A DNA stretch of 64,000 bases from Candidatus Giovannonibacteria bacterium RIFOXYD1_FULL_48_21 (GCA_001778985.1 MFIU01000001.1:50111-114110); one strand, 5' to 3'; numbered from the stretch's first letter, positions 26,664-50,600 are shown. The notes: generated by a model from the sequence alone, not told the origin. Translations and numbers: made by a program.

Positions 26664-26749
26664 AAACTCACCTTCCTTTCTTTCTGGTTTGTTTTGTGCC
26701 TTTATTTAGCCTTTAAATTGTCAATGATTTGTTCAAAATTATAGCTGAT

Positions 26750-26778: not shown

Positions 26779-26784
26779 TATAGA

Positions 26785-27649: not shown

Positions 27650-27651
27650 AG

Positions 27652-28844: not shown

Positions 28845-29350
28845 TGAACATCATCAAACATAAAAATCAGCGGGTCGCGGTTTTCATTGACGCCCAGAAT
28901 ATGTATCACTCGGCTAAAAGCCTTTTTCAGGGCCGGGTGAATTTCAAGGAGCTTTTGAAAACCGCCGTAGCCGGGCGGCAGCTTATTCGGGCCTTCGGAT
29001 ACGTTATCCGCACCAAAACCGGAGAGGAAAAGCCGTTTATTGACGCGCTTTTGAATCTAGGCATCGAGAGCCGGGAGAAAGATTTGCAGGAATTTTTCGG
29101 CGGAGCCAAAAAAGCTGACTGGGACGTCGGGATTGCGGTAGACGCGATCAGAACAGCCGAGATCGTGGACGCAATCGTCATCGCTTCGGGAGACGGCGAT
29201 TTCATTCCGCTCGTGGAATATTTAAAAAACCAGGGGAGGAGGGTGGAGGTGATGGCGTTCGGCCCTTCGGCTTCGGGCAAGCTCCGGGAAATTACGGACG
29301 AGTTCATTGACCTTGCCGAAGACCCCGGCAGGTATATACTAAAAAGGTAG
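28844..29350 (+). CDS. NYN/LabA-like (DUF88) domain protein
   Basis: VAVFIDAQNM, DVGIAVDAI and ASGDGDFIPLV: the acidic residues of a PIN-like NYN nuclease fold. Confidence 0.75.
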   Translation: MNIIKHKNQRVAVFIDAQNMYHSAKSLFQGRVNFKELLKTAVAGRQLIRAFGYVIRTKTGEEKPFIDALLNLGIESREKDLQEFFGGAKKADWDVGIAVDAIRTAEIVDAIVIASGDGDFIPLVEYLKNQGRRVEVMAFGPSASGKLREITDEFIDLAEDPGRYILKR

Positions 29351-32423: not shown

Positions 32424-32780
32424 ATGGCTTGGGAAAGATTCAAAAAACTTTTGGAAGAAGAGAAAGTTAGGCTCGAGAAAGAACTCTCCCAGATTGCGAG
32501 GAAAAACCCGGAAAACCCGGAGGATTGGGAAGTGAAGGCGCCGGAGATGAATCCGATGGTTTCTGACCAGTCGGAGCTCGCGGATATGTTTGAAGAATTG
32601 GAAACCCAGGCCGGCTTGGAATACCAGCTAGAAGAGAGATTGAAAAAAGTGAACGCGGCTTTGAAAAGAATCGAGGATGGAAGCTACGGCGTCTGCTCGG
32701 TCTGTAGCGAGAAAATCGACGAGAAGCGTCTCGAGGCAAATCCTTTGGCAAAAAACTGCATCGAGCACACCGAGCAATAG
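32424..32780 (+). CDS. DksA/TraR-family C4-type zinc-finger protein
   Basis: C-terminal CSVCSEKIDEKRLEANPLAKNCIEHT. Confidence 0.7.
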   Translation: MAWERFKKLLEEEKVRLEKELSQIARKNPENPEDWEVKAPEMNPMVSDQSELADMFEELETQAGLEYQLEERLKKVNAALKRIEDGSYGVCSVCSEKIDEKRLEANPLAKNCIEHTEQ

Positions 32781-32782
32781 AT

Positions 32783-34312
32783 ATGACCGCGGTCAAAACT
32801 CACTCTGCGGAAATTGTGGGCCTGGCGGGAGAGATAATCGACGTGGAGGTGGACCTCTCCCCGGGCCTTTTTCATTTTTCCATCGTGGGCCTCGCGGACA
32901 AGGCCGTGGAAGAATCAAAAGAACGGGTCTCCTCGGCCATTAAAAATTCCGGCCTCCGGCACCCCCAGAAAAAAAACCAGCGGGTCGTGGTTTCTCTCGC
33001 TCCGGCCGACCTCAAAAAAGAAGGACCTTTGTTTGACCTGGCGATTGCCTTAGGCTATCTTCTGGCTTCGAATCAGATTGAATTCGAGCCAAAAGGAAAA
33101 ATTTTTCTGGGAGAGCTTGCTCTCGACGGCGGCTTAAGAAAAATAAAAGGCGCGCTAGCGCTGGCGCTCGCGGCCAAAGACCAAGGCTTTCAGGAAATAA
33201 TTCTCCCGGAAGAAAATGCGGCGGAGGCCAGCTTGGTAGAAGGAATAAAAATATTTGGAGTTAAAAGCTTGGGTGAGGTGCTGAAACATCTTATCGGCGA
33301 GAAGACACTTTTACCCCAGCCGCGGCTTAAAATTGAAAATAAAACTTTTTATCCGTTTGATTTCGGGGAGATTAAAGGACAGGAGCTCTCAAAGAGAGGG
33401 CTCACCCTGGCCGCGGCCGGAGGACATCATGTTTTGATGGTGGGCCCTCCCGGAACCGGTAAAACCATGTTAGCCCGGGCCCTGCCTTCAATTCTTCCGG
33501 AGATGAACTTTGATGAAATGCTGGAGGTAACCCGGATTCACTCTGTTTCGGGAAATTTAAAAAAGGCTTACCTTTCGGAGCGTCCGTTTCGAAATCCGCA
33601 CCACACCGCCTCCTACGTGGCGCTGGTTGGCGGCGGCCAGAGTCCGCATCCGGGAGAGATTACTTTGGCGCACCGCGGGGTTTTGTTTCTGGATGAATTT
33701 CCGGAATTCGAACGAAGAGTTCTCGAAGCGCTCCGCCAGCCTCTGGAAGACGGCGAGATTACGGTTTCCCGCGCCAAAGGAACTATCACTTTTCCGGCGA
33801 GAAGCCTTTTGGTTTTTGCCATGAACCCCTGCCCTTGCGGGAATTTCGGCTCGGAGAAAAAACCCTGCCTCTGCTCCACGCAGACCTTGTATCGCTACCA
33901 AAGAAAGGTTTCAGGACCAATCGCGGACCGGATTGATATTTGGCTTGAGGTGCCGCACTTTGAACACGAGAAAATGAGTCAGAAATCCAAACCAGAAAGT
34001 GAAGCAATTCGACAAAGAGTGAAGAGGGCTCGGGAAATTCAGGGAGAGCGCTTTCACGGCAAAGACATCGCTCTGAACGCCGAGATGCGGCCGAAAGAGC
34101 TGGAGGAGCTTACCCCGCTCTCTGGAGAAAACCAGGAACTTCTGCACACGGCCGCTAAAAAATTAGACCTCTCGGCCCGGGCCTATCACCGCGTGATTAA
34201 ACTTTCGCGCACCATCGCGGACCTCGAAGAATCTAAAAACATAAAACAAGAGCATCTTTTGGAAGCGCTCCAATACCGCCCCCGAAAAAACTTTTTCGTG
34301 TATGAAACTTGA
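32783..34312 (+). CDS. comM: ComM/YifB Mg-chelatase-like AAA+ ATPase
   Basis: N-terminal Lon-like domain (VSLAPADLKKEGPLFDLAIALGYL); Walker A GPPGTGKTM; ChlI-type C-terminus. Confidence 0.9.
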   Translation: MTAVKTHSAEIVGLAGEIIDVEVDLSPGLFHFSIVGLADKAVEESKERVSSAIKNSGLRHPQKKNQRVVVSLAPADLKKEGPLFDLAIALGYLLASNQIEFEPKGKIFLGELALDGGLRKIKGALALALAAKDQGFQEIILPEENAAEASLVEGIKIFGVKSLGEVLKHLIGEKTLLPQPRLKIENKTFYPFDFGEIKGQELSKRGLTLAAAGGHHVLMVGPPGTGKTMLARALPSILPEMNFDEMLEVTRIHSVSGNLKKAYLSERPFRNPHHTASYVALVGGGQSPHPGEITLAHRGVLFLDEFPEFERRVLEALRQPLEDGEITVSRAKGTITFPARSLLVFAMNPCPCGNFGSEKKPCLCSTQTLYRYQRKVSGPIADRIDIWLEVPHFEHEKMSQKSKPESEAIRQRVKRAREIQGERFHGKDIALNAEMRPKELEELTPLSGENQELLHTAAKKLDLSARAYHRVIKLSRTIADLEESKNIKQEHLLEALQYRPRKNFFVYET

Positions 34313-34699: not shown

Positions 34700-35719
34700 C
34701 TAAAACGGGTTCCTCGCCCCGCGGACCTCAAAATGCACATGGCAGCCGGTGGATTGGCCGGTGCGGCCGACATAGCCCAAAACCTGGCCCTGAACCACAT
34801 GCCAGCCAGGAGACGCAATGATTCCGTTTAAGTGAGCGTAAAGAGTCTGGGTACCGTTGGAATGGGAGAGGACGGCATACTGGCCGTAGCCGCCGTTCCA
34901 GCCGGTCGGCCGCGAAATCAAAACCTCTCCCGAAGCCGAGGCCAAAATCGGCGAGCCGCAATAAGTCGCGAGGTCAACTCCGTTATAGCCGTGAAGCCCT
35001 TGTGACTTCCGGCCGCCATTTATCGGTCTAATATAGTACCCGGAGTAACTCGGGCCGCCGGTTCCGCGGACGTTAGACGACGAATAGCTGACAAGCGGTT
35101 CTGCTTCACCGTTGGGAATGATGAGGGCCATCCCTTCCTCTAAAACGTCTTCCGAACCAAGCCCGTTGAAGCTTAAAATCTCTTCAGCATCCCCGCCGAA
35201 TTTTTTGGCAATGAACTTAAGCGTATCGCCTTTTTTAACCGTGTACTGCACTCCGGAGACCGGCAGAATCACCAGCACTTCGCCGGGGCTTATCAGGGTG
35301 GAGCGCGTAAGGTTGTTAGCCCAGCGGATGGTGTTGACTGAAACCCCGAAAATTCTGGCGATGGAAGAAAGAGTATCTCCCTGCCGCACCGCGTAAAGCG
35401 AGATTGAATCCGGCCGTTGCTCCACCACGTCCGCGATGGAGCCCAACGGCCCGGTTACGGGCAAGAGGGCGGAATTTTGCACGATATTAACCTCACCGCC
35501 GCCCACGCCCGCCAAAAGATTGGCGTTAAACGGCGCCGAAAGCAGGGGCAGGGTTTGAGAATTCCCCGAGATCGTGCTGGCCTCATTGGTCCAGCCGAGA
35601 ATCTTCTCAAAAATATTGAAAAATTTAGCCTCTGCTCGGGAAAGGCCTAAAAGAAAAGAAAAAAACAAAGAAATAATCAAAAAGCCGAGAAGAAAAAGCG
35701 CGTTTGAATTGGAGTACAA
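34700..35719 (-). CDS. M23-family metallopeptidase with two LysM domains
   Basis: LysM repeats (YAVRQGDTLSSIARIFGVSVNTI and YTVKKGDTLKFIAKKFG). M23 catalytic motifs (HGYNGVDL, HVHFEV). Confidence 0.85.
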   Translation of the reverse strand: MYSNSNALFLLGFLIISLFFSFLLGLSRAEAKFFNIFEKILGWTNEASTISGNSQTLPLLSAPFNANLLAGVGGGEVNIVQNSALLPVTGPLGSIADVVEQRPDSISLYAVRQGDTLSSIARIFGVSVNTIRWANNLTRSTLISPGEVLVILPVSGVQYTVKKGDTLKFIAKKFGGDAEEILSFNGLGSEDVLEEGMALIIPNGEAEPLVSYSSSNVRGTGGPSYSGYYIRPINGGRKSQGLHGYNGVDLATYCGSPILASASGEVLISRPTGWNGGYGQYAVLSHSNGTQTLYAHLNGIIASPGWHVVQGQVLGYVGRTGQSTGCHVHFEVRGARNPF

Positions 35720-37781: not shown

Positions 37782-38520
37782 GAAGCCAAAAAAGCGGCTG
37801 GGACAGCATTTTTTAAGGAATAAAAAAATTCTGGAAGAAATTGCTCGGGCGGCCGAGCTTTCGAAGCGAGATATAGTTCTAGAAGTTGGCCCGGGACACG
37901 GAGAACTTACGGAATTTTTGGCCGCATCCGCTGGAAAAGTTATCGCCGTGGAAAAAGACCATGAACTTACTCTATTTCTTAAAGAAAAATTCAAAAATTA
38001 CAAAAATGTCGAAATCGTTGAAGGAGATATTTTGAAAATTGGAAAATTGAAAATTGAAAATTATAAAGTGGCGGCAAATCTTCCATACTACATTACTTCG
38101 CGTTTTTTGCGGGCTTTTCTGGAGGCAAAAAATAAGCCAAAGCTCATGGTCTTAATGGTACAATACGAGGTCGCAAAACGAATTTGCGCGAAGCCGCCCG
38201 GAATGAATTTGCTGGCGCTCTCGGTTCAGGCTTACGCCCGACCGAAGTTTATCAGAAAAGTTTCAAAAAAATATTTCTTCCCTCCGCCCAAAGTTGACTC
38301 TGCTATTATCAAATTGTTGAACATTGAATGTTCAACATGTTCGACATTGCCGCCAAAGTTTTGGAAGGTAGTGCGCTTGGCCTTCCAGCAGAAACGAAAA
38401 ATGCTCCGGCATTTATCCGTGCCGAAAAAATATGAAACCAAGCGCCCCCAGGAACTTTCGCTGGAAGATTGGCTAAAAATCATCCGCAGCCGCAAATATT
38501 TAACATGCCATCCCAAATAA
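37750..38520 (+). CDS. rsmA: 16S rRNA (adenine1518/1519-N6)-dimethyltransferase
   Basis: RLGQHFL, SAM-binding VLEVGPGHGELT, NLPYYIT. Start chosen at MPLASRISN; the ORF track starts at 37708. Contains an in-frame (GAAAATT)x4 repeat at 38034-38062. Confidence 0.85.
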   Translation: MPLASRISNGVKPKKRLGQHFLRNKKILEEIARAAELSKRDIVLEVGPGHGELTEFLAASAGKVIAVEKDHELTLFLKEKFKNYKNVEIVEGDILKIGKLKIENYKVAANLPYYITSRFLRAFLEAKNKPKLMVLMVQYEVAKRICAKPPGMNLLALSVQAYARPKFIRKVSKKYFFPPPKVDSAIIKLLNIECSTCSTLPPKFWKVVRLAFQQKRKMLRHLSVPKKYETKRPQELSLEDWLKIIRSRKYLTCHPK

Positions 38521-39607
38521 ACGGCTTGCCGCGTCCGCCGCAAAGATTCCAGCATCCTAAATAACCGCAACACGGGCTTGCGATGCAACAAGGAACTCCA
38601 TAAAGGTTACCCCCGGTAAGACTTGGCACACCCTCTTGGAAGCAAAACAGGGGCGTTGAACAATGACACTTGCATTTTGCTTCAACAATATTGATAGGCA
38701 GCGCGGTAAGAAGTAAATTCATAAGCCCGGTGAGATATTTCGAGAGCACTCGCCTGCCGCTTCCGGAATCTGGCGCTTGGGAAGTAGGACCCTCGCCGGA
38801 TGATCTCAATATCTCATTGAATTCGTCGCCGTAACCTTGGCTTTCCATAAGCTCCCTAAACTCTTTTTCCGCCTCTTCCGGCGAAGCCCATGTCCCAGTC
38901 ACGGGTATTCTGCCTTCTCTAATAGCTTTGAGGGATATCGCCTCCTTTAATTTGAAGTTGTCCGAAGCGCCGAAAACAAGTTTAGCGCCTTCCAAATACG
39001 CCTCATAGCCCGTCTGATCAATAATGCCGCTGCTTAAAAGATACCCAAAGAGACGGTCATTAAAATTCTTCACTTCTTCTTCGTTTCTGAAAGCAACCTT
39101 TTCACTGGAACGCAATGCGCCTTCTTCTATTAAAAACGCCTGCGCCTGGTTCAGCGCTTCAATGTAAAAATCCGGATAAAGCAGGTCAAAAATTTCCTCT
39201 TTGGTAAGCGAGCTGGACGAGGCCGCGTTGGCAGGCGAAGCCGGCAATGGAGGCAAGCCCGGAAACAGCGGGGAAGCGGGCGGAAACGGCGAGAAAATTT
39301 TTCCGAATGTTTCCAAAAACGGCCCAAGGGCCTCGGAAGAGGGTTCTAAAATCGCCTCCGCAGAGGGGGCATTGAATATTGAAAAATTTCCGCTGGCAGG
39401 ATTTTCGTTAAAAACTCCGCCTTGAATAGGTACAAAAGCGCGACCAGCGGTTCCAGAATCAGGAAATAGCCGTAAATCCGGACTTCTGGCCGAAGGAGAG
39501 CTCGTGGAAACATTAAAAGCCGAGTACCAAACGTAAATAAGAAGGCTAAAAATAGCCAAAATTGCCGCCGCAATCAAAAAAAGGAAATTATACCTGCTTT
39601 TCAACAT
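38480..39607 (-). CDS. Hypothetical secreted protein with an N-terminal anchor, a Pro/Ala/Ser-rich linker and a Cys-rich C-terminus
   Basis: 375 aa. C-terminal ...CKCHCSTPLFC...CCIASPCCGYLGCWNLCGG...ICGCG. Its 3' end overlaps the ksgA 3' end; the genes are convergent. Confidence 0.55.
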   Translation of the reverse strand: MLKSRYNFLFLIAAAILAIFSLLIYVWYSAFNVSTSSPSARSPDLRLFPDSGTAGRAFVPIQGGVFNENPASGNFSIFNAPSAEAILEPSSEALGPFLETFGKIFSPFPPASPLFPGLPPLPASPANAASSSSLTKEEIFDLLYPDFYIEALNQAQAFLIEEGALRSSEKVAFRNEEEVKNFNDRLFGYLLSSGIIDQTGYEAYLEGAKLVFGASDNFKLKEAISLKAIREGRIPVTGTWASPEEAEKEFRELMESQGYGDEFNEILRSSGEGPTSQAPDSGSGRRVLSKYLTGLMNLLLTALPINIVEAKCKCHCSTPLFCFQEGVPSLTGGNLYGVPCCIASPCCGYLGCWNLCGGRGKPFIWDGMLNICGCG

Positions 39608-39695: not shown

Positions 39696-40634
39696 GTGAA
39701 GTATTTACCGAGCCCAAGAATTTTAGGCTTTTTTGTCATAATTTCAGCCCTCGCCGGGGTGGGGTGGTTTTGGTATTTTTCTCCTTCTTCGAACAAAAGC
39801 GAGGTCTATGAAAACGGCGCCTTGACAGCCGGGTCCGTAAATAAAATCACGGCAGACGCTGACGGCGACGGGCTGCAAGACTGGGAAGAGGTTTTATGGA
39901 AAACCGACCCCAAAAACCCGGATTCTGACGGAGACGGCATATTTGATGGCGACGAAACAAGGCCAGCAAACAATCTAAAAGCCGCCATTTCAGAAAAACT
40001 TCCCGAAGAGCCGAACCTGACCGAAGCCTTCTCTGGAGCTTTCGCGCGCTCAATCGGCCCGAGAATTCTGGAAGAAGGCGGGCTGTCCGGCATATCCGCC
40101 GCCGATCTGCAGGGGATCGCAGGCTATCTCCCGAGTTCGGATTCGCTGCTGCCTGAACCTGAAAAAATAACGAGCGACGACATAATTATCTCTGAGAAAA
40201 ATGACAATACTGCGGTTAAAAAATATTTTTCGGATCTCTTTTCCGTCTACGAAAAAACTTTCTACACGCTCACAGAAGACGATTTCTCTATACTGGAGCG
40301 CGCCTTTCGGGAAGAAAATTTCAGCGAACTCGCCAAGATTGACGAAATCATAAATGTTTTTGAAAAAAGTTTTCAGGGAGTGAAAAAACTTCCCGTGCCC
40401 GGGGGTTGGGAAAATTTCACGATAAAAGAACTTGGCTATATTCTGCGCACCAAACAGATTTTGGAAAAAATCAGGGGCGCGGGCCAAGATCCTCTCTCCG
40501 CGCTGATTTTGCTTCCGAAGCGAGTAGAACTTATGAACGAGGTTAATAAATTTCACAAAGAAACCGGAGAACTTCTTAAAGATAAGGGAATAACTTTCAG
40601 CGAGAGCGAAGGGGCTTATAAAATTTTCCATTAA
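39696..40634 (+). CDS. Membrane-anchored secreted protein with Ca-binding-like Asp-rich repeats. First gene of the T4SS-like cluster.
   Basis: N-terminal TM helix, then DADGDGLQDWEE...DPKNPDSDGDGIFDGDE (thrombospondin-type-3-like DxDxDG). TATAAT at 39683 and GGGTGA upstream. Confidence 0.55.
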   Translation: MKYLPSPRILGFFVIISALAGVGWFWYFSPSSNKSEVYENGALTAGSVNKITADADGDGLQDWEEVLWKTDPKNPDSDGDGIFDGDETRPANNLKAAISEKLPEEPNLTEAFSGAFARSIGPRILEEGGLSGISAADLQGIAGYLPSSDSLLPEPEKITSDDIIISEKNDNTAVKKYFSDLFSVYEKTFYTLTEDDFSILERAFREENFSELAKIDEIINVFEKSFQGVKKLPVPGGWENFTIKELGYILRTKQILEKIRGAGQDPLSALILLPKRVELMNEVNKFHKETGELLKDKGITFSESEGAYKIFH

Positions 40635-40636
40635 GC

Positions 40637-41914
40637 ATGGGCGGTTTTTCAGAAAAATACAAAAAATTTTTATCGATCTCTGCCATAGTTTTGATTTTAT
40701 CATCCGCCTTCTTTCCGTTTTCCAAGGCGCAGGCCATCGTTCCTGTTTTTGACGCTCCGGCAAATGTACTTCTAGGAACTATAAGCGGCTTTACGGGTTC
40801 GACGGCCGGTTTCACGGGAAGCTTAGTAGCCAAAGAATTCGGCTTCGATTCAATTGCTTGGCTCGTGGGAAAAGCTTTACTCCGAACCATCACCACGCAA
40901 ATTGTCAACTGGATTAAAACCGGTGACACCAGGGGGCCTTTGTTCGTGGAAAATTTTCTGGAGCATTTCTCGCGCGAAATGGACAACGCCGTGGGACTTT
41001 TCTTGGAGCAATATTTCGGCAGGAACTCCCAGCTTTTGGGGCTTTTATGCAGTCCGTTTCGCCTGACCCTGCCGCAACTTCTGGGCGTGCACCGCAGGTC
41101 CCAAGACTTCACCCAGCAGGCGCGCTGTAAGCTCTCGGACATCGTCAGAAACGTCGAGAATTTTAACGTTAACTTGTATTTCAACGACTTTTCGCACGGC
41201 GGCTGGGACGCCTGGTTCGCGATGCTGGAGCCGGAACACAATATGTTCGGGCAATATCTGACGGGCGTTTCTCGGCTTGAACGAGAGCGCGCCAGCGCAT
41301 TTTTCGCAGGCCAAACCGAAGCTCAGACTACCGGCGGCGGGCTTTTGTCCTGGCAGGAATGCGAAACCATCGCGATTCCGAGCCCAGACGGCATTGTCGC
41401 GGACGAAAGATTAAGACAAAACTGCAAAATTATGACGCCCGGCAAACTGGTTGAAGATTCTCTGGCGAACGCTTTTGGCTCGGGCATTAAACAATTGGAG
41501 CTTGCAGACGAGCTGAACGAAATCCTGGTCGCCTTCTTCCAGCTCTTGATAGACCAAATTCTTTCGCAAGGATTTTCAAGAACAAACCCAGGCACCATTA
41601 CTCCGCCTCCGGCGCCTCTTTTTGACTATTATCTTTTGACAAACGGGAGTATCAACGTAACTCGCGGAGCTTCGGGTTCTAATACGATTACCCGCGTGCT
41701 TATTTCCGGCACGCCGGCCGTCGTAAGTGTCGCGGCCTCGGGGCTTCCGGCTGGGACTACGGCCTCTTTCACCAACAACCCCTGCACAGTGCCCTGCGCC
41801 AGCGCCCTTACCATCAGCACGGCGTCAAGCACGCCTGACGGAAGTTTTTCTATTACAGTCACTGGCTCTCCCTTAAATAGGACCGCCACTTTCAGTCTAA
41901 TTGTTTCGCCATGA
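40637..41914 (+). CDS. Hypothetical secreted protein (425 aa)
   Basis: Signal peptide, with a C-terminal Ig-like Thr/Ser-rich region. Confidence 0.55.
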   Translation: MGGFSEKYKKFLSISAIVLILSSAFFPFSKAQAIVPVFDAPANVLLGTISGFTGSTAGFTGSLVAKEFGFDSIAWLVGKALLRTITTQIVNWIKTGDTRGPLFVENFLEHFSREMDNAVGLFLEQYFGRNSQLLGLLCSPFRLTLPQLLGVHRRSQDFTQQARCKLSDIVRNVENFNVNLYFNDFSHGGWDAWFAMLEPEHNMFGQYLTGVSRLERERASAFFAGQTEAQTTGGGLLSWQECETIAIPSPDGIVADERLRQNCKIMTPGKLVEDSLANAFGSGIKQLELADELNEILVAFFQLLIDQILSQGFSRTNPGTITPPPAPLFDYYLLTNGSINVTRGASGSNTITRVLISGTPAVVSVAASGLPAGTTASFTNNPCTVPCASALTISTASSTPDGSFSITVTGSPLNRTATFSLIVSP

Positions 41915-43875
41915 GAAACGTCTTTTTCCGAAAATTTATAGTAGCGCTTCTCATCCTGGGATTTTTTGTTATGTTTTTCGCGCCGCGCGCGAGTTTCGCG
42001 CAACCAAGCATAACATCAAACCTTTCTGGGTGTTCTTGGGGGGTTTTTTCTGTGCTTAATGACATAAACTGCCTCGCCTTTCCGGTAGCATATATACTCG
42101 ATTTTGTATTCACTTTTGTCGGTTGGTTTTTTGTGGGCATTTTAGGAAATATTTTTAGCTACACTTTAGGTTTGACGATTAACAACGGGTTATATCAAAA
42201 CATTGAACCGATAGCGACCGGCTGGGCTTTCACGCGCGATGTTGTAAACATATTTTTCATATTCGCGCTTCTTTTCATAGCCATCGCGACCATTCTTGGA
42301 ATCGAATCTTACGGAGTCAAAGCTTTACTGCCGCGGCTCATAATAATCGCCTTACTGGTAAACTTTAGTCTATTGGCGACTCAAGCAATCATTTTTGTTA
42401 CCAACGCCCTAGCATACGAACTTTACAGCGTTGTTACGGTAACGGGCGTCTCCTCCAAAATTCTTTCAAACTACGCTCAGCCTGGATTCAATCGTGATAT
42501 CGCGGGAGCTATCATGCAGGGCATCGGGCAACAGAGATTATTTAACGTCAATCCCTCGGGGCTTCAGCCGGGCTCTAGCGCTCCCCCAACCAGCGCCGCC
42601 CAGGTTAATATTGCCGTGATTGTGACCCTTGGGGCCTCTATATTCATAATGGCATTTGCCGGCTTTATATTTTTGGCGGGGTCATTTTTCTTCATTGTCC
42701 GAATGGCAACTTTATGGCTCTTGATGGTGCTCGCTCCTTTTGGCTTTGTCTTCTTAATTCTTCCCGCAACCAAAGGTTATGCCCAGAAGTGGTGGACCAC
42801 GCTTCAATCCCAAGCTTTATTCGCGCCCGCCTTCATGTTCTTTATAATAATTACCGTAAAAATGTCCAACGCGGATCTATTCGGAATAGTAAGAAGAATA
42901 AATAGTAATCCCAACATGGGCGCGACCGATCTCATTTTTCTTTTGATTATTCAAAGCACTGTTATTTTTCTTCTGCTGGGCGGCTCACTTATCATCGCCA
43001 AAACTCTCGGCATCTATGGCGCCGGAGCGGCGATAGGCATGGCCGCCGGCGCCGGCAAGGCGTTCAGGGGGTATGTGGGGAAGGGGGCGCTTAGGATGGG
43101 AGCGCTACCTGCCCGCGGACTAAACAAATTAGCTACGGCACCCGGAAGAATTCCATATGCCGGCCCCGTTTTCCGTGCATTACTTAAACCGCTAACTGCC
43201 GCTACGGGCGCGGCCGTAAGAGTAACGGATAAAGAAAAAACCGAACGCCAAGAAAGCTGGAAAAAACTTTCTCCTATTGCGCTTGCCGAAACATATCGTG
43301 GCGCAGTAAATCCGTTAACGCGAAAGGAAATACTGAAAGCTGCGGGAGAGTCTGGAAAATTAGATAAATTTAGTGAGGGTGAACTGCAAACAGCTTACAG
43401 TCAATTTAAAGATAAGCCGGCGGATGCAAGGGCCTACAATAATGTCGTAAAAGCAAGGCCGGACTTAATCGAAAAAGATAGTTCTCTTTCGCCCGCCGAT
43501 AAACGAACACGAATGACCGACGCATTGAGCAGGATGTCAGAAAAAGATATCGAAGAAAAACTGGATAAGAAAACTTTTGATCCAGCCAATGCCTTGACAC
43601 AAGAGTTGATGGTACTGACGTGGGGAGAAAGAGAAATGACCGCAGCCATCAGAAAACACGGAGAAGCAGCCAGAAATGCTGTAAACCAATCACTCGCTAC
43701 AATGGGGCCACCAGATGTTCAGTTCCGCAACTTATACGACAACAATAAAAGTTTCATCAAAGGTCTTTTCAGAAATCCAGCCCTTGCGCTTCAATTCGGC
43801 GTACTTAGAACTAACATGGAGAGAGCGGCAGCGCGGGCATATCCTGATTGGGAACATAGATTAGGAATTACATAA
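41911..43875 (+). CDS. Polytopic membrane protein, candidate VirB6/TrbL-like channel component
   Basis: 654 aa. Signal peptide, then at least six TM helices, then a hydrophilic C-terminal extension. Architecture only. Confidence 0.5.
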   Translation: MRNVFFRKFIVALLILGFFVMFFAPRASFAQPSITSNLSGCSWGVFSVLNDINCLAFPVAYILDFVFTFVGWFFVGILGNIFSYTLGLTINNGLYQNIEPIATGWAFTRDVVNIFFIFALLFIAIATILGIESYGVKALLPRLIIIALLVNFSLLATQAIIFVTNALAYELYSVVTVTGVSSKILSNYAQPGFNRDIAGAIMQGIGQQRLFNVNPSGLQPGSSAPPTSAAQVNIAVIVTLGASIFIMAFAGFIFLAGSFFFIVRMATLWLLMVLAPFGFVFLILPATKGYAQKWWTTLQSQALFAPAFMFFIIITVKMSNADLFGIVRRINSNPNMGATDLIFLLIIQSTVIFLLLGGSLIIAKTLGIYGAGAAIGMAAGAGKAFRGYVGKGALRMGALPARGLNKLATAPGRIPYAGPVFRALLKPLTAATGAAVRVTDKEKTERQESWKKLSPIALAETYRGAVNPLTRKEILKAAGESGKLDKFSEGELQTAYSQFKDKPADARAYNNVVKARPDLIEKDSSLSPADKRTRMTDALSRMSEKDIEEKLDKKTFDPANALTQELMVLTWGEREMTAAIRKHGEAARNAVNQSLATMGPPDVQFRNLYDNNKSFIKGLFRNPALALQFGVLRTNMERAAARAYPDWEHRLGIT

Positions 43876-43879
43876 AGAA

Positions 43880-44548
43880 ATGATGACGGATGTAGAAAAA
43901 AATTTTTACCAACTCCTAGAAAAACTTCCGAAGGATTTGCAAAATGCTATCTCGGGCGTGGATACTGCTGACGCTATCGAAAGCATCGCGAAGAAATACT
44001 CTCTACTTATCGACAAAATGGGTATTTTGGCCGAGGAGACTGGCTTAGTGATGCTGGGCATTACCCATCCAAAAGATTTTATCTCAAATCTTTCGCAGAA
44101 GCTCGGCGTGGACCGCGAAACCGCGAGAAAAATCGCCGAAGATATAAATCAGCAGATTTTTCAGAAAGTGAGAGAAAGTTTGCGGAAAATACACGGAATC
44201 AAAGAAGAAGCTCCGAGCATTTCGTCTGTTTCTCCTGTTTCGCCGGTATCCAAACCTCCTCCTCCCTTGCCCGCCGAAGCCTTGGCGAAGGCGGGGCCGT
44301 CAGTTTCCCAACCGCCAAAAAAGGAAATTCCCAAAGAAGAAATACGTCCACTGGAAATCCGCCCGATGAAAAGTTTCGCCGAAGAAACTAAAAAAGAAAT
44401 CAAACTTGCCGAGCCCGTGAAACCGGTGCCGCAGCTTGAAAAAATAAAAGTTATGCCTGTAGAAAAGGCGGCGCCGCCTCCAAATCTGCCGATTGCCGAC
44501 GAAAAAATAAAGAAAAAGTTCGACCCGTATAGAGAACCAATGAAGTAA
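43880..44548 (+). CDS. Hypothetical protein with a Pro-rich C-terminal half
   Basis: 222 aa (SPVSPVSKPPPPLPAEALAKAGPSVSQPPKKE). Confidence 0.5.
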   Translation: MMTDVEKNFYQLLEKLPKDLQNAISGVDTADAIESIAKKYSLLIDKMGILAEETGLVMLGITHPKDFISNLSQKLGVDRETARKIAEDINQQIFQKVRESLRKIHGIKEEAPSISSVSPVSPVSKPPPPLPAEALAKAGPSVSQPPKKEIPKEEIRPLEIRPMKSFAEETKKEIKLAEPVKPVPQLEKIKVMPVEKAAPPPNLPIADEKIKKKFDPYREPMK

Positions 44549-44550
44549 CC

Positions 44551-44970
44551 ATGTACCAATTTCAAGTGCCGCAATTCATAGAAGTGGAGGATAAAATTTT
44601 CGGGCCACTGACCCTGAAGCAGTTTTTGTACGTTTTGGGCGGCGGTTCCATAATTTTCCTCCTCTACGTCTTCTTGCCGTTTTTTCTGATGGTGCTTTTT
44701 GCCGCGCCAGTGGCGGTTCTCTTTGGAGCCCTCGCTTTCTACAAAATAAACGGCCAGCCTCTTGTAAAAATTTTGGAAGGGGCGCTTGAACACTATACCC
44801 GCTCGAGGCTTTTCATTTGGAAAAAGGTGGAACGTCCTAGAAAAACATCGGATGTTTCTCATTCAACATCCGATGTTGGAAAGACCGGCCTCTTTCTCCC
44901 CAAACTTACCGAGTCGAAATTAAAAGAATTAGCCTGGTCGCTGGATATCCAACATGGCAAACGCAGTTAG
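44551..44970 (+). CDS. PrgI/VirB3-like small membrane protein
   Basis: N-terminal EVEDKIFGPLTLKQFLYVLGG followed by two TM helices. Sits directly upstream of the VirB4-like genes. Confidence 0.55.
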   Translation: MYQFQVPQFIEVEDKIFGPLTLKQFLYVLGGGSIIFLLYVFLPFFLMVLFAAPVAVLFGALAFYKINGQPLVKILEGALEHYTRSRLFIWKKVERPRKTSDVSHSTSDVGKTGLFLPKLTESKLKELAWSLDIQHGKRS

Positions 44971-45610
44971 CGCCAAGAGCGCGCAAGAGTTTGTCCCGAT
45001 TCAGGAGATTCGGGAAGGGGTGGCGATTTTAAAAGACGGGGCTTTGCGAATGATTCTGATGGCCTCCTCGCTTAACTTCGCGCTCAAATCCGCGGACGAG
45101 CAGGAGGCGATTATTCTGCAGTACCAAAATTTTCTGAACTCGCTCGATTTCACGGTTCAGTTTTTCATCCAGTCCAGAAAGCTCAACATCAATCCCTATC
45201 TGGACACGCTCCGGGAAGCCGAGAAAAATCAGGTAAACGAGCTTCTTAAAATTCAGACTCGGGAATATATCGAGTTCATAAAGAATTTCGTGGAAGCTTC
45301 AAACATCGTTACCAAAGCTTTCTACGCCGTGGTGCCTTACCAGCCGCCGGTTTTCACCTCGGCCAAAGAAGCGGCCGGAACGATTATGGGAATTTTCAAG
45401 AAGAAAGACGAATCTCCGGTCGGGCTCTCGGACGAAAAATTTGAAGAATACAAAACCCAGCTTTTCCAAAGAGTAGATACGGTCGCGCAGGGCTTGACGC
45501 GTTCCGGAGTCAGGGTCGCGCCCTTGAACACCGAGGAGCTGATTGAGCTTTATTACTCGCTCTTTAATCCCGGGGAGCTTGAAAAAGGCAAAGCCCCGGA
45601 AGTGGGATAA
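44954..45610 (+). CDS. VirB4/TraC-family protein, N-terminal domain only, encoded as a separate ORF
   Basis: FVPIQEIREGVAILKDGALRMILMASSLNFALKSADEQEAIILQYQNFLNSL matches the N-terminal region of Gram-positive-type VirB4 (PrgJ/TcpF-like). Ends with TAA 5 nt before the next ATG. Confidence 0.6.
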   Translation: MANAVSAKSAQEFVPIQEIREGVAILKDGALRMILMASSLNFALKSADEQEAIILQYQNFLNSLDFTVQFFIQSRKLNINPYLDTLREAEKNQVNELLKIQTREYIEFIKNFVEASNIVTKAFYAVVPYQPPVFTSAKEAAGTIMGIFKKKDESPVGLSDEKFEEYKTQLFQRVDTVAQGLTRSGVRVAPLNTEELIELYYSLFNPGELEKGKAPEVG

Positions 45611-45615
45611 AAAAG

Positions 45616-47427
45616 ATGGCGTTCTTCAGAAAAAAACAACCAGAAAAAGAGCCGGAAATTTTATCGGTTTTCCCGCAGGACATTTACGAGGCCGGAGTTT
45701 TGGAGCTTCAGGATGTCATCGCGCCCGCGGCCCTTGAGATAAATTCCAACTTCATAAAGCTCGGAGAAAAAGTGGCGCGCACTCTTTTCATCTTCGCCTA
45801 TCCCAGATACCTCGCGGTCAACTGGTTTTCGCCCATTATCAATCTGGATAAAGTTTTCGACGTTTCTATTTTTATCCATCCCTTGGATACCGGCGCCGCG
45901 CTCCGCCAGCTTCAGAAAAAAGTGGCCGAGGTGCAATCCCAGATTCATCTGCGGGAGGAGAAGGGGCTCGTGCGCGACCCGATGCTCGATACGGCGCACC
46001 AGGACCTGGAAGCGCTTCGGGACAAACTCCAGCAGGCTCAAGAAAAACTTTTCTCATTCGGGCTTTATCTAACGATTTACGCCGACAGCCCGGAAGAACT
46101 GAATAAAACCGAAACAGAAATCCGCTCCATTCTGGAATCCAAGCTGGTCTACGCCAAACCGGCTCTGTTCCAGCAGGCTCCAGGGCTCGAGAGCGTCTTG
46201 CCGCTCGGCACGGACAAGCTCGAAGTCAACACCAAGCTTAATTCCTCTCCCATCTCCTCGCTTTTTCCCTTTATCTCTTTTGACCTGACTTCCAATAAGG
46301 GCATTCTCTACGGAATCAACCGCCACAATTCTTCTTTGGTTCTTTTTGACCGCTTTTCGCTCGAGAATTACAACTCCGTGGTCTTCGGCAAGGCCGGCGG
46401 CGGCAAAAGTTACGCCGTGAAATTGGAAATTCTCCGCTCGCTGATGCTGGACACCGATGTCATTGTGATTGACCCGGAGCGGGAGTATGAATATCTGGCC
46501 GAAACCGTGGACGGCAGATATTTCAATATCTCCCTCACCTCTCACCACCATATAAATCCTTTTGACCTGCCGCCGCCCCGCGAAGACGAATCTCCAGCCG
46601 ACGTTTTGCGCTCGAACATCATAAACCTGGTGGGGCTTTTGAGAATCATGTTCGGGGGCCTCACTCCGGAAGAAGACGCGATTTTGGACCGGGCCATCAC
46701 TGAAACCTATGCCTCGAGGGATATCACGCCGGAATCTGATTTTTCAAAAATAAATCCGCCGATTCTCTCGGATTTAGAGCTGGTCTTGGCAAATATGGAA
46801 GGCGGCGAATCTTTGGCCCAGCGCTTGAGAAAATACACTCAAGGAACTTGGGCCGGGTTCATCAACCAGCCCACGAACGTGGATATAAATAAGAAGCTCG
46901 TAGTCTTCTCGGTGAGAGATATGGAAGACGAACTTCGTCCCATCGCGATTTATCTGATTATCCACCATGTCTGGAACACGGTCCGAGCTTCTCTGAAAAA
47001 ACGGCTCCTGATAGTGGACGAGGCCTGGTGGCTCATGAAAACCGAGGACGGCGCTTCCTTTCTCTTCGGCATCGCCAAGCGCGCGAGAAAATACTACCTG
47101 GCCCTCTCCACCATCACCCAGGACGTGGGCGATTTTCTGAACTCGCCCTACGGAAAATCAATCATCACCAACTCCTCCTTACAGCTTTTGTTAAAACAGG
47201 CTCCGGCCACGATTGACTTGGTTAAAGAAACTTTCAATCTTACGGATGAAGAAAAGTTTTTGCTCCTGGAATCGGACGTGGGCGAAGGAATCTTTTTCGC
47301 GGGATTGAAGCATATCGCGATTAAAATTTTGGCTTCCTACACCGAGGACCAGATAATAACCTCCGACCCTTCCCAGCTTTTGGCGATTAAAAAGGCGAAA
47401 GAAGAGTATCAAAAAGCTAATTTGTAA
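45616..47427 (+). CDS. VirB4/TraC/CagE-family conjugation/secretion ATPase, C-terminal ATPase part
   Basis: Walker A GKAGGGKSY and Walker B LLIVDEAWW. 603 aa. Confidence 0.75.
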   Translation: MAFFRKKQPEKEPEILSVFPQDIYEAGVLELQDVIAPAALEINSNFIKLGEKVARTLFIFAYPRYLAVNWFSPIINLDKVFDVSIFIHPLDTGAALRQLQKKVAEVQSQIHLREEKGLVRDPMLDTAHQDLEALRDKLQQAQEKLFSFGLYLTIYADSPEELNKTETEIRSILESKLVYAKPALFQQAPGLESVLPLGTDKLEVNTKLNSSPISSLFPFISFDLTSNKGILYGINRHNSSLVLFDRFSLENYNSVVFGKAGGGKSYAVKLEILRSLMLDTDVIVIDPEREYEYLAETVDGRYFNISLTSHHHINPFDLPPPREDESPADVLRSNIINLVGLLRIMFGGLTPEEDAILDRAITETYASRDITPESDFSKINPPILSDLELVLANMEGGESLAQRLRKYTQGTWAGFINQPTNVDINKKLVVFSVRDMEDELRPIAIYLIIHHVWNTVRASLKKRLLIVDEAWWLMKTEDGASFLFGIAKRARKYYLALSTITQDVGDFLNSPYGKSIITNSSLQLLLKQAPATIDLVKETFNLTDEEKFLLLESDVGEGIFFAGLKHIAIKILASYTEDQIITSDPSQLLAIKKAKEEYQKANL

Positions 47428-47429
47428 AT

Positions 47430-47879
47430 ATGGCTGAAGCAGCTGCAATTGAGAATGCAGAACAAATGGAAGCGGAGCGAAGTATGAAGCTCCAGGAATC
47501 GCGCCTGAGAGCAAGGATTTCCAGAAGCGCCAAGGCTCAAGTGGCGGCCGGAGTCAAAATAGGTTTAGCGGCGGCATTTTTGATGCTTGGTTTTGCTGGT
47601 ATGCTGGATTTAGTAGACTGGCTCGGGGTAGGGTCGATTCCTCTGATCGGAGATATTCTGGACATATTTGGCGGCTTGGTCATTTACTTCTGGGTAAAAA
47701 TTAAGGGTCTTGATCAGAAAAAACCCTGGTACATTTCATGGCTAGCCGGCGGAGGAACGTTAGTGGAACTGATACCGGGCGGAGATATTCTTCCTTCATA
47801 TATTTTGACGGTCCTAGTAATCATAATCGTCAATACCTCGTGGGGTCAAAGATGGGCAAAGTTTCTCTCGCCAATATGA
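47430..47879 (+). CDS. Hypothetical membrane protein (149 aa)
   Basis: Charged N-terminus followed by three hydrophobic helices. Confidence 0.5.
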   Translation: MAEAAAIENAEQMEAERSMKLQESRLRARISRSAKAQVAAGVKIGLAAAFLMLGFAGMLDLVDWLGVGSIPLIGDILDIFGGLVIYFWVKIKGLDQKKPWYISWLAGGGTLVELIPGGDILPSYILTVLVIIIVNTSWGQRWAKFLSPI

Positions 47880-48874
47880 AATTTTGGATTTTAAATATAA
47901 TTTATATAATATTAGGAATATTGCTACTGCCAGCTCTTTCCGCCCAGGCCCAGCTTAGACTTCCGGGAGGGGCAAGCCTTTCCATAAAAATTTCTCCGGA
48001 ATTTCCGGATCCCGGAGCAGAAGTAAGGGCGGAGCTTCTCTCTTATAGTCTTGACGTGAACCGGGCCAGTATCACCTGGGCGCTCGACGGAAAAGCGCTG
48101 GCAAGCGGCGTTGGGGTTAAAGAAGTTTCGTTCAAAGCGGCCGCTCATGGTGCAAAAAATACTTTAAGCGCGAGTGCGACGAGCCCGGGCGGCGAAAGAT
48201 TCGAAACTTCGGTCGTTATCCGGCCTCAATCTGTGGACCTGATTCTTGACGCGAAAAGCCGCGTACCTCACTGGTACCGGGGCGCCGCGCTTCCCATTTC
48301 AAGAACCAGGGTGGTGGTGAGCGCGATTCCTAATTTCATCTCCAGCGGCGCCAGAATCAATCCTTCTTCCCTGCAATATGAATGGAGGGTTGACCGCCGA
48401 TTGATATCGGACTTTTCAGGGCGCGGCAAAGACAGCATTTCGGTTTTGACTCCGGGTCTAGGTGAAGTCGCCAAAGAAGTCATGGTCAAAGTAAGTTCGT
48501 CTGACGCTAGCTTGGTCAAAGAGGCGCGCGCGATGGTTCAGGCTTTTTCTCCAGAGATTCTTTTTTATGAGCGGCTGCCCCTCGAAGGAATTAAAACCTC
48601 TTTGGCCTTAAGGACTAAAAATCTTTTCGCCGGAGGCGAGTTCGAAGTCCAAGCCGTGCCTTTTTCCATGAATTACTCCTCTCTCTCTGACCTAAGTTTC
48701 TCCTGGAGCTTTGACGGCAACGCTACCGACCCCCTCTCTGGAGAGCCGGACACGCTCCTCGTAAAAACCGGTGGCGGCTCCGAGGGCCAATCGGGTTTGA
48801 TAGGAATCTTGGTATCAAATCTTAAAACTTTATTCGAATCGGTAAACGCGTCTTTCGATGTCAATATCCAGTAA
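47876..48874 (+). CDS. Hypothetical secreted protein
   Basis: Start set at MKFWILNIIYIILGILLLPALSAQA (a signal peptide). The ORF track's 47738 start overlaps the previous gene. Confidence 0.5.
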   Translation: MKFWILNIIYIILGILLLPALSAQAQLRLPGGASLSIKISPEFPDPGAEVRAELLSYSLDVNRASITWALDGKALASGVGVKEVSFKAAAHGAKNTLSASATSPGGERFETSVVIRPQSVDLILDAKSRVPHWYRGAALPISRTRVVVSAIPNFISSGARINPSSLQYEWRVDRRLISDFSGRGKDSISVLTPGLGEVAKEVMVKVSSSDASLVKEARAMVQAFSPEILFYERLPLEGIKTSLALRTKNLFAGGEFEVQAVPFSMNYSSLSDLSFSWSFDGNATDPLSGEPDTLLVKTGGGSEGQSGLIGILVSNLKTLFESVNASFDVNIQ

Positions 48875-49436
48875 AAAAATAATTTTATTTGCGGCCCTGC
48901 TTCTGATTTTGGGAGCGTCAAACGTTCAGGCGCTTGAAATCACGGCTGGAGCTTCAGCGCAGCCTCCTAATGATTTTCTAAGCTACGCAAAATTTCTCTA
49001 TCCGTTCGCGCTTTCCGTGGCCGCGGTCTTGGCGGTAATCATGATAATAATCGCCGGGCTTGAAATGATGACCGCTTCCGAGGGCCTTCGCGAAGACGCC
49101 AAGAAAAAAATCTGGGGCGCGGTTCTGGGGCTTTTGCTTGCAGTCGGCTCCTTTCTGATTTTACGCACTATAAATCCGCAGCTGATAAATTTAAATATAG
49201 ACACGAGCAGATTAGAAGTCATCACCCCAATCACCCCAGGTCCTGGACCGGGGCCAGGCGGTGTAGCTGACTGTATCGTAGATGGAAGGACATTTGAACT
49301 GACTAGAGCGCAATGCGCTTCTCACGGTGGCTGTTTTAAGAGTGGACGTATATTTGAGCTAACTAAAGCACAATGTGATTCTCACCAAGGTTGTTTTATC
49401 GGAACAGTCGGGAGTATAGGCGACTGCCACATATAA
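48858..49436 (+). CDS. Pilin-like protein (TrbC/VirB2-like topology) with a Cys-rich duplicated C-terminal motif
   Basis: Signal peptide, then two TM helices separated by TASEGLREDAKKK, then two copies of (T/I)FELT(R/K)AQC(A/D)SH(G/Q)GCF. Confidence 0.5.
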   Translation: MSISSKKIILFAALLLILGASNVQALEITAGASAQPPNDFLSYAKFLYPFALSVAAVLAVIMIIIAGLEMMTASEGLREDAKKKIWGAVLGLLLAVGSFLILRTINPQLINLNIDTSRLEVITPITPGPGPGPGGVADCIVDGRTFELTRAQCASHGGCFKSGRIFELTKAQCDSHQGCFIGTVGSIGDCHI

Positions 49437-49448
49437 GCAATTAAAACT

Positions 49449-50600
49449 ATGCCAAACTTTTTCACAACCAGAAATCTGATAATCGCGGTGGCGGCGCTTT
49501 TGATTGTTGGCGGCGGACTCGTCTGGTATTTGACTTTGCCCAAGGGCGCTGACGAAGAAAGAAAAAGTGCGGCAGAATTTTTCTATGGGCTTTTTCCGGG
49601 AGGAGGCGAGAGAGAACTGACCGAAGCCCCGACGCCTGAAGGGGTCGGGGTCCCGACTCCCGACGCTCTGGGTCGGGACGTCGGGAGAGAAAGTTTTCAG
49701 ATGGTTCAAGAATCTGTTTCCGGCGCAATCGTGGTCAAGGATAAAGTCCGCTACATTGAAAAATCATCCGGGCACGTTTTTGAGATGGGTCTCGACGGCG
49801 GAAATAAACAAAGAATTTCCAACACCACCATTCCCGGAATTTTTGAGGTCATCTGGTCGGGGACCGGTAGCCGCGCGATTTTAAAATATCTTTCCGGAGA
49901 AAAACTGAACATTCTTTCCGCCAATTTTACGGGCTCTTCCACCCAAGGCACGTTTCTCTCGCCGGATATCAAAGACGCGCTTTTTTCTCTAAAAGGAGAC
50001 CGCATCGCTTATGTCATAGAAGCTCCAGACGAAACTCTGGTGATAACCGCGACCCCGGACAATAAAAACCAAACCGTCAGGCTCAGAAGCCCTTATTCTT
50101 CCTGGAAAATTTTATGGCCCGAAGACAATAACATCTACTTATTAACTTCGCCTTCGGCCTATCTGGACGGCTTTCTTTATAGAATAAATTTGGCTTCGGG
50201 CAGCTTTACAAAAATTCTGGGGCCAAAACCCGGACTTTTGGCTTCGTCAAATGGCACTGCCTGGTTTACTTCAGAAGCTGACCTAGACAATAAAACCGTT
50301 ATAAACTCTCTCGCCATTAAAACCTTTCCGGAAAAATGCGTCTGGTCTAAAAAATCTAAAGATATTATATTCTGCGGCGTCCCCTTGTCGTTTCCGGCCG
50401 GAATTTATCCCGACGACTGGTATAAAGGCAAAGTTTCTTTTGATGACGCGATTTTAAAAATTAATTTGAGCGGCTCGGCAAGCTCGGTTTTCACTCCGGA
50501 AAACGCTGAGGTAATCAATCCGGTTTTATCAGAAGACGAAACCCTCCTCTTTTTCATAAATAAGAAAGACGGAACTTTATGGCGCGTCAAGCTGGAATAA
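49449..50600 (+). CDS. Hypothetical membrane-anchored extracellular protein (383 aa)
   Basis: N-terminal TM anchor. Beta-rich repeats suggest a propeller-like fold. Confidence 0.5.
   Translation: MPNFFTTRNLIIAVAALLIVGGGLVWYLTLPKGADEERKSAAEFFYGLFPGGGERELTEAPTPEGVGVPTPDALGRDVGRESFQMVQESVSGAIVVKDKVRYIEKSSGHVFEMGLDGGNKQRISNTTIPGIFEVIWSGTGSRAILKYLSGEKLNILSANFTGSSTQGTFLSPDIKDALFSLKGDRIAYVIEAPDETLVITATPDNKNQTVRLRSPYSSWKILWPEDNNIYLLTSPSAYLDGFLYRINLASGSFTKILGPKPGLLASSNGTAWFTSEADLDNKTVINSLAIKTFPEKCVWSKKSKDIIFCGVPLSFPAGIYPDDWYKGKVSFDDAILKINLSGSASSVFTPENAEVINPVLSEDETLLFFINKKDGTLWRVKLE

Follow-up and report, generated by a model that had tools for sequence, protein, structure and literature searches.

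The eleven genes at positions 39696-50600 of a 64,000 nt stretch of DNA (the window), part of a metagenome-assembled genome of Candidatus Giovannonibacteria (Paceibacteria), very probably encode a patescibacterial type IV secretion system (T4SS) that is chromosomal, is inherited vertically and descends from the MPF-FATA conjugation machinery of monoderm bacteria. The observations behind this are the identities of the motor and membrane platform proteins, a split VirB4, a pilin module, a conserved gene order close to the replication origin, the absence of conjugation-specific genes from the 64 kb, and the conservation of the motor set against the variability of the surface proteins. The system itself is already known, patescibacterial T4SSs having been described between 2023 and 2025 (PMC10633639; PMC12102498), and the cluster is of this known kind because it fits the published description feature by feature. 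What is added here is that two of its proteins, O9 and O11, are invariably present in the Paceibacteria loci examined (42/42), that the C-terminal extension of the pilin is hypervariable and in some relatives is a cell-wall enzyme, and that VirB4 stands above DnaA in conservation. Patescibacteria, which are ultra-small and host-dependent, account for a large part of bacterial diversity, and in the one species tested, Southlakia epibionticum, epibiotic growth requires the T4SS, pilins included (Wang et al., 2023; PMC10633639). The window provides a clean and complete Paceibacteria example of this system, showing which of its parts are most constrained and which evolve fast.

An open reading frame (ORF) listing over 38-52.5 kb returned eleven co-directional ORFs on the + strand, O1-O11 (Table 1), with gaps of 2-12 nt or overlaps of 4-28 nt between neighbours, in agreement with the tightly packed gene set described by an earlier reading of the sequence alone (the sequence-only reading). 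That reading also named a VirB4-family ATPase on its Walker motifs, and O7 exceeds the cutoff of the NCBIfam model 'VirB4-like conjugal transfer ATPase, CD1110 family' (E 4.2e-111; 372.5 bits, cutoff 325) over model positions 185-732. The Walker A motif GKAGGGKS (G261, G263, K264, S265) and Walker B motif DEAW (D468, E469) are invariant among homologues, and further matches are to Pfam P-loop_TraG, AAA_10 and DUF87 and to the solved VirB4 C-terminal domain (PDB 4ag5, E 5.1e-39). Scores against the diderm models are far under their cutoffs, at 180.7 bits for TraC-F (cutoff 567) and 116.8 for VirB4_CagE (cutoff 643), and the nearest plasmid VirB4 proteins, from Bacillota and Actinobacteria, are 28-36% identical. 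As judged from these model scores and best plasmid matches rather than from a tree, O7 is placed closest to the monoderm types of VirB4, not the diderm ones.

The protein encoded immediately upstream, O6, was listed by the sequence-only reading as a generic further protein and its nature went unrecognised. It aligns to positions 2-120 of the CD1110 VirB4 model (E 1.4e-6), to the N-terminus of Mbov_0397 VirB4 (E 1.1e-8) and to TrsD/TraD (E 3.7e-5), all below cutoffs, has a precomputed match to the TraC-like Pfam family PF26593, and is 33% identical (E 1.7e-30) to the product of the gene just before VirB4 in a Pontibacillus plasmid. Since O6 covers positions 2-120 of the VirB4 model and O7 positions 185-732, VirB4 is split here, as it is in TrsD/TrsE of pGO1, and on these matches O6 is assigned as a TrsD-like, detached VirB4 N-terminal domain. 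The membrane platform accompanies this motor. Adjacent to the VirB4 module, O5 is the PrgI/VirB3-type membrane anchor for VirB4, with a hairpin of transmembrane (TM) segments and a match to Pfam PrgI (PF12666; E 1.7e-12, 48.1 bits, cutoff 27), as its earlier description as a two-TM PrgI/VirB3-like protein had it. The large polytopic protein previously likened to VirB6/TrbL, O3, has its TM region at about residues 50-367, followed by residues 440-654, which are predicted very confidently as a helical cytoplasmic domain. O3 itself has no direct Pfam match, and 19 of 60 homologues match TrbL/VirB6 (PF04610) with others carrying TrbL_3; on these homologue matches and the predicted fold, it is identified as an extended VirB6. 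In a near-identical assembly (L001:6219-8260; GCA_003510385.1) VirB6 is called as two ORFs of 211 and 408 aa rather than one of 654 aa, which is probably a frameshift or assembly error.

Two pilin-like genes were noted in the window by the sequence-only reading, and both identifications hold. The pilin-like part of O10 comprises a signal peptide, two TM helices and a TINP motif; beyond it lie a PGPGPGPG linker and a Cys motif that occurs in duplicate. Its match to Pfam T4SS_pilin is below the cutoff (E 1.9e-4), 31 of its 33 positional orthologues match this family (best E 9.2e-10), and the NCBIfam Mbov_0395 pilin-like model is matched at E 2.3e-6; O10 is thus best described, by profile, as a VirB2-like pilin. 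The second gene (23830-24186, - strand) encodes a protein with a signal peptide and two TM helices that passes the T4SS_pilin cutoff (E 1.6e-9; 38.1 bits, cutoff 26.6), matches TrbC/VirB2 (E 9.7e-5) and shares 37% identity with the O10 core over 43 residues. This second gene lies in a region (23745-28524) where it adjoins tRNA-Arg and follows three co-directional genes for membrane proteins without a known family (24286-26663), near an AbiEii toxin gene (27032-27649) and a gene for a XerC/D-like recombinase (27652-28524). An island bounded by the tRNA-Arg and the recombinase gene is not supported, as no att-like direct repeat was found.

Across the positional orthologues of O10, the VirB2-like core ends in the conserved TINP, beyond which lies an extension that is hypervariable and 0-300 aa long. 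A peptidoglycan enzyme makes up this extension in three loci, namely YkuD (E 2.9e-14), NlpC/P60 (E 1.2e-10) or SLT_2 (E 6.7e-9), the pilin loci concerned being L031:12824-13771, L036:12899-13987 and L056:12834-13931. By eye only, several other extensions resemble LAS/M15-type Zn peptidases. The C-terminus is exposed on the filament in solved VirB2/TraA pili, and by analogy the extensions would be displayed cargo domains if the same exposure applies here. Fusions of a pilin to a hydrolase might also supply the VirB1 function that is apparently missing.

To place the cluster among its relatives, one genome per species was scanned, yielding 80 loci with VirB4 identities of 71-84%, of which the 42 with full flanks (within L005-L084) were compared. 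These loci come from Giovannonibacteria, Niyogibacteria, Terrybacteria, Kaiserbacteria, Taylorbacteria, Zambryskibacteria, Nomurabacteria, Campbellbacteria and other Paceibacteria, and in 42/42 the gene order is uvrD-ksgA-[O1 O2 O3 O4 O5 O6 O7 O9 O10 O11]-jag-yidC-dnaA-dnaN, with the individual genes occurring as counted in Table 1. The cluster is therefore not a chance association. VirB4 is more conserved across the related genomes than DnaA, UvrD (median identity 49.6%), YidC and DnaN (34.3%), a contrast that is somewhat inflated by the VirB4-based selection of loci. A strongly constrained cytoplasmic motor of VirB4, TrsD and PrgI thus stands against fast-evolving surface proteins and pilin extensions, which is the pattern expected of a machine for host interaction.

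The same synteny bears on whether the genes could instead be the conjugative apparatus of an integrated mobile element, with its relaxase and coupling protein outside the window. VirB4, PrgI, TrsD and VirB6 are homologous to conjugation genes of Gram-positive plasmids and integrative and conjugative elements (ICEs), and O7 is publicly annotated as 'conjugal transfer protein TraC'. The position between ksgA and yidC-dnaA is, however, fixed in 42 genomes from many Paceibacteria lineages, the GC content of the cluster (0.46-0.50) is the same as that of the rest of the window with no compositional island, no integrase, relaxase or type IV coupling protein (T4CP) gene adjoins the cluster, and relaxases occur in just 103 of 3,035 Patescibacteria genomes (PMC12102498), leaving conjugation a very improbable reading. 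A prophage or ICE was likewise rejected, the housekeeping flanks, the conserved synteny and the uniform GC content weighing against it. The sequence-only reading had named a prophage or conjugative element extending beyond the window as the outcome that would undo it, and this does not apply, the flanks being housekeeping genes at the replication origin: uvrD/pcrA and ksgA upstream, and jag, yidC, yidD, rnpA, rpmH, dnaA and dnaN downstream. The cluster is chromosomal and origin-proximal, the position reported for Paceibacteria. No relaxase and no coupling protein (VirD4/TcpA-type ATPase) was found among the annotated window ORFs of at least 300 aa. With a CD1110-family VirB4, PrgI/VirB3 and VirB2-like pilins, the earlier description of a minimal, Gram-positive-like T4SS lacking a relaxase, a coupling protein and VirB9/10/11 is sustained.

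Published accounts of patescibacterial systems agree closely with this picture. A survey of 3,035 Patescibacteria genomes found a monophyletic VirB4 clade nested in MPF-FATA, with TrsD as the commonest companion of VirB4 alongside PrgI/VirB3, VirB6 and VirB2-like pilins, very few homologues of VirB8 and VirB1, and, in Paceibacteria and Microgenomatia, a T4SS located close to dnaA, dnaN, rnpA, ksgA and rpmH (Quinonero-Coronel et al., 2025; PMC12102498). The T4SS of S. epibionticum (SEML1_0006-0019) has no recognisable coupling protein or relaxase (PMC10633639), and a 2025 review lists the patescibacterial systems as a new T4SS type (PMC12857230). The window shares with these systems VirB4 with TrsD, PrgI/VirB3, VirB6 and VirB2-like pilins, the lack of a relaxase or T4CP nearby, and the chromosomal location by dnaA, dnaN, rnpA, rpmH and ksgA. 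It differs in having no tandem pilin array, its two pilins being the extended one of the cluster and a short one encoded at a distance of 25 kb, in having no peptidase or lysozyme gene directly downstream of virB4, and in that the Paceibacteria cluster always carries the O9 Ig (immunoglobulin)-repeat protein and the O11 TolB-like propeller. A word search of the 2025 survey, confined to its main text, found no mention of O9- or O11-type proteins. The order VirB6-X-PrgI-TrsD-VirB4 is also seen in two patescibacterial loci that are more distant, of which one has an array of seven pilin genes; O2, O4, O9 and O11 were not found in them, although both loci stop at or just past virB4, which matters for O9 and O11.

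Among MPF-FATA systems (trsC-trsD-trsE of pGO1/pSK41, CD1110 of CTn2, prgH-prgI-prgJ of pCF10), the order of VirB3-like, TrsD and VirB4 genes in the window mirrors trsC-trsD-trsE, O7 passes the CD1110 cutoff, and outer-membrane core genes are absent. Unlike the MPF-FATA plasmids and ICEs, the cluster has no relaxase, T4CP, VirB8-like or VirB1 gene, possesses VirB2-like pilins, is fixed in the chromosome, and has a VirB4 only 28-36% identical to those of plasmids. The best plasmid match, and the nearest non-patescibacterial relative found, is a megaplasmid of Pontibacillus sp. ALD_SL1 typed as non-mobilizable (NZ_CP062975.1, 351362-361354; L085), which carries, in the same order as the window, two pilin-like genes and genes for a 779 aa VirB6-like, a PrgI-like, a TrsD-like and a short VirB4 protein. 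It differs in being a plasmid of a free-living Bacillota species, in that a 1,050 aa M23 peptidase follows, and in that no homologues of O1, O2, O4, O9 or O11 were found in its cluster. To the Mycoplasma ICE there are below-cutoff NCBIfam matches only, O10 and the unlinked pilin matching Mbov_0395 (~2e-6) and O6 and O7 matching Mbov_0397 VirB4. Given the Pontibacillus genes and the Mbov_0395 pilin model, Patescibacteria are not the only monoderms with pilin-like genes beside VirB4.

The proteins outside the motor, platform and pilin are mostly predicted to face the exterior, with a single N-terminal hydrophobic segment in each of O1, O2, O9 and O11 in a hydropathy scan. O1 is N-terminally anchored or secreted and has, ahead of a helical domain, two TSP3-type DxDxDG repeats that bind Ca (Pfam TSP3_bac, E 1.6e-5, 25.1 bits, cutoff 25; NCBIfam CglD-like repeat region), and O2 has a signal-like N-terminus, so that the two secreted proteins of the sequence-only reading, the first with DxDxDG repeats, are both borne out. 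The window O2 matches no family and has a conserved N-terminal domain of ~300 aa; its AlphaFold2 (AF2) model, built with 20 homologues, has a mean pLDDT (predicted local distance difference test score) of 49.7, with only residues 330-425 confident as an Ig-like beta sandwich. Orthologues of O2 exchange the C-terminus, which may be discoidin/F5_F8_type_C, Big_7 or Bact_surface_Ig-like. One idea for O2 is that it may be an analogue of VirB5. O9, encoded directly after VirB4 in many related loci, gave a profile (42 orthologues) that matches the Ig-domain protein Hoc (E 6.9e-5), and the O11 profile (45 orthologues) matches TolB structures (E 1.2e-6 to 5e-5). Weak family matches are to BiPBP_C for O9 and to DUF5050 for O11. 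O9 was considered as the missing VirB8 and rejected, its profile indicating Ig-like repeats and not the NTF2 fold. No family match to a VirB8-like (NTF2-fold) bitopic protein was found in the cluster, the bitopic O9 and O11 matching Ig-like and TolB-like folds instead. O8 has no family match and is poorly conserved and lineage-specific.

The proline-rich protein noted previously is O4 (11.7% Pro), which lacks TM segments and whose N-terminal domain, conserved and helical, is followed by a disordered linker rich in Pro. It ends in the peptide DPYREP (44522-44545), in which D215 and Y217 do not vary, and P216 and E219 scarcely vary, across 36 orthologues; exact DPYR is present in 26/36 and most others have DPY[KH]E, a DPY[RKH]EP-type peptide lying within the last ~ten residues in most of the 36. 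Profile searches of O2 and O4 against the PDB gave nothing significant, O4 has no Pfam match either, and no known counterpart to the DPYREP peptide was found. The peptide resembles a signal for docking or secretion on a tether. With 6/11 proteins now assigned a T4SS role or fold, the earlier statement that most components have no recognisable family was overstated.

These surface features raise the question of whether the machine serves adhesion or surface display only, VirB4 building pilin filaments that carry variable adhesin domains without any substrate being transported. The hypervariable C-terminal domains on the pilin modules and the lectin-like and Ig-like domains on O2 orthologues would suit such a role, as would the fact that, in those T4SSs that have been studied, the ATPase for pilus biogenesis is VirB4 (PMC12102498). 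It is nonetheless quite unlikely to be the whole function, as type IV pili for adhesion and motility exist in the same genomes, with a PilB-type ATPase in the window, the extended VirB6 channel subunit is conserved, and the motor is so strongly conserved that a role beyond adhesion is suggested. The PilB/GspE-type ATPase was correctly identified by the sequence-only reading, yet it belongs to a type IV pilus system and is unrelated to the cluster: its ORF (62758-63972, - strand, 404 aa) is located on the opposite strand at a distance of 12 kb, past housekeeping genes. This ORF aligns to positions 177-562 only of the PilB model, so the N-terminal domain is lacking or is encoded separately past the window end. 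The 'competence-like' alternative raised earlier is unsupported, there being no type IV pilus or Com components in the cluster, and a type IV pilus or competence pseudopilus was rejected as O1-O11 include no PilB/ComGA-type ATPase, PilC platform or class III prepilins.

By comparison with studied T4SSs, a hexamer of the VirB4 O7 with the TrsD-like O6 would dock on the PrgI/VirB3 protein O5 and the VirB6 channel O3 at the cytoplasmic membrane. ATP hydrolysis would then pull the VirB2-like pilins (O10 and the product of 23830-24186) from the membrane and polymerise a tube through the cell wall, and the fast-evolving surface proteins O1, O2, O9 and O11 would scaffold this tube and bind the host cell. 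Such a machine would serve contact with the host bacterium and the traffic of macromolecules across that contact, not plasmid conjugation. A 2024 perspective describes the role as 'completely unknown' and mentions both effector delivery and nucleic-acid uptake (PMC11665869), whilst in a 2026 preprint a cultivated relative is reported to take up host RNA and to have tubular structures that may be T4SS pili, and PNPase and VirB4 are connected with feeding on host RNA (bioRxiv 10.64898/2026.06.21.733656).

The direction of traffic is a matter of conjecture. The uptake of material from the host, for instance nucleic acids, at a little short of an even chance, is weakly preferred because no coupling protein accompanies the cluster and the known nucleic-acid movers that lack both T4CP and relaxase, ComB of Helicobacter pylori and the archaeal Ced, are importers. 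Both of these import nucleic acids without a relaxase by means of a VirB4-type ATPase and polytopic membrane partners. The match of O7 to the CedB model is weak (E 2e-12, far below cutoff); ComB differs in having a diderm VirB2-4/6-10 set, and Ced in that no CedA/A1/A2 homologues were detected in the window. Import by a patescibacterial system has been put forward as a hypothesis only (PMC11665869).

Export of effectors by the same T4SS, which would inject or release proteins that manipulate or damage the host bacterium in the manner of pathogen T4SSs and the bacteria-killing T4SSs of Xanthomonas, is a possibility given a somewhat lower probability than uptake. It is the commonest T4SS function and has been speculated upon for Saccharibacteria (PMC11665869; PMC10633639), some O10 orthologues carry the peptidoglycan enzymes YkuD, NlpC/P60 and SLT, and the conserved extreme C-terminal peptide of O4, following a disordered linker, could be a secretion or docking signal. 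Against export, no coupling protein, needed by almost all exporters of cytoplasmic substrates, is present in the cluster or window, and no candidate effector genes were identified.

Several points weigh against the overall interpretation of the cluster as a patescibacterial T4SS for host contact. The window VirB6 and O10 miss the Pfam thresholds directly, and their assignments come via homologues and predicted fold. The loci compared were picked by VirB4 similarity, which inflates the conservation of VirB4 relative to the other genes. Formation of a pilus by these pilins is a prediction, and the transport direction is conjectural, as stated above. A T4CP or relaxase could be encoded elsewhere in the genome, beyond the 64 kb examined. 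VirB8-like and VirB1-like genes were not found inside the cluster; a gene for a LysM-LysM-M23 peptidase (34700-35719, - strand) lies 4 kb upstream, beyond uvrD and ksgA, and the 2025 survey included proteins of the LysM-M23 type among the VirB1-like candidates that accompany virB4 in Paceibacteria (PMC12102498).

A more elaborate proposal, which is rather unlikely as it stands, is that the Paceibacteria version carries an undescribed extracellular module, consisting of O9, O11, O2 with exchangeable lectin/Ig domains and pilins with exchangeable C-terminal cargo including peptidoglycan hydrolases. The parts of this module would jointly build a feeding tube that penetrates the host wall and imports host RNA or other macromolecules, with O4 and its DPYREP peptide as a cytoplasmic adaptor. 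O2, O4, O9, O11 and the pilin fusions are candidates for structural or genetic study.

Table 1. Genes of the cluster, the unlinked pilin gene and two comparison genes, with their occurrence and identity in the 42 full-flank Paceibacteria loci
Feature	Position	Strand	Product	Loci	Median identity
O1	39696-40634	+	312 aa, TSP3-type Ca-binding repeats	19/42	25.4%
O2	40637-41914	+	425 aa, secreted, C-terminal Ig-like domain	26/42	27.3%
O3	41911-43875	+	654 aa, putative extended VirB6-type polytopic channel subunit	41/42	28.5%
O4	43880-44548	+	222 aa, soluble, Pro-rich linker	25/42	31.9%
O5	44551-44970	+	139 aa, PrgI/VirB3-type TM hairpin	42/42	45.5%
O6	44954-45610	+	218 aa, TrsD-like, putative detached VirB4 N-terminal domain	42/42	56%
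O7	45616-47427	+	603 aa, VirB4 ATPase (middle and C-terminal domains)	42/42	72.7%
O8	47430-47879	+	149 aa, small membrane protein, ~three TM segments	1/42	28.1% (single locus)
O9	47852-48874	+	340 aa, N-terminally anchored, extracellular Ig-like repeats	42/42	28.2%
O10	48858-49436	+	192 aa, putative VirB2-like T4SS pilin with 75 aa C-terminal extension	34/42	38.6%
O11	49449-50600	+	383 aa, N-terminally anchored, extracellular TolB-like beta-propeller	42/42	29.5%
Unlinked second VirB2-like pilin	23830-24186	-	118 aa, short canonical form		
DnaA (comparison)				40/42	51.8%
YidC (comparison)				40/42	40.7%

The start of O9 in Table 1 was taken from the public gene call, the longest ORF beginning at 47738. 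Exact copies of O7 are present in contigs of Candidatus Giovannonibacteria metagenome-assembled genomes from the Rifle aquifer and elsewhere (e.g., GCA_001778665.1), as are near-exact copies. Consensus scans for promoters and terminators across the cluster gave terminator counts close to shuffle expectation, and the best promoter-like matches lay on the wrong strand or within genes. Divergently transcribed from the cluster is a gene (38480-39607, - strand) for a 375 aa protein that is anchored at its N-terminus, has a region rich in Pro and Ser, and contains 12 cysteines within its final ~65 residues (KCKCHC...CGCG); it has no family match, and a weak homologue was found in the closest Giovannonibacteria locus only.

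The large ORFs annotated in the remainder of the window include those for H+-PPase, ClpP, phosphoglycerate mutase, RNase Y, ATP synthase, the CCA-adding enzyme, PNPase, YifB/ComM, the LysM-M23 peptidase, PBP1, TyrRS, RuvB and the PilB/GspE-type ATPase. Up to 35 kb upstream of the cluster are genes for RNA or DNA handling, encoding RNase Y (5408-6937), an NYN-domain nuclease (28844-29350), PNPase (29445-31607), a DksA/TraR-type zinc-finger protein (32424-32780) and YifB/ComM (32783-34312), which are probably housekeeping genes. Two large putative surface proteins with peptidoglycan-binding domains are also encoded, at 7404-8810 and 18584-21586, one having a BsuPI-like domain and the other being a right-handed beta-helix protein of 1,000 aa, and these may be further envelope or host-interaction factors.

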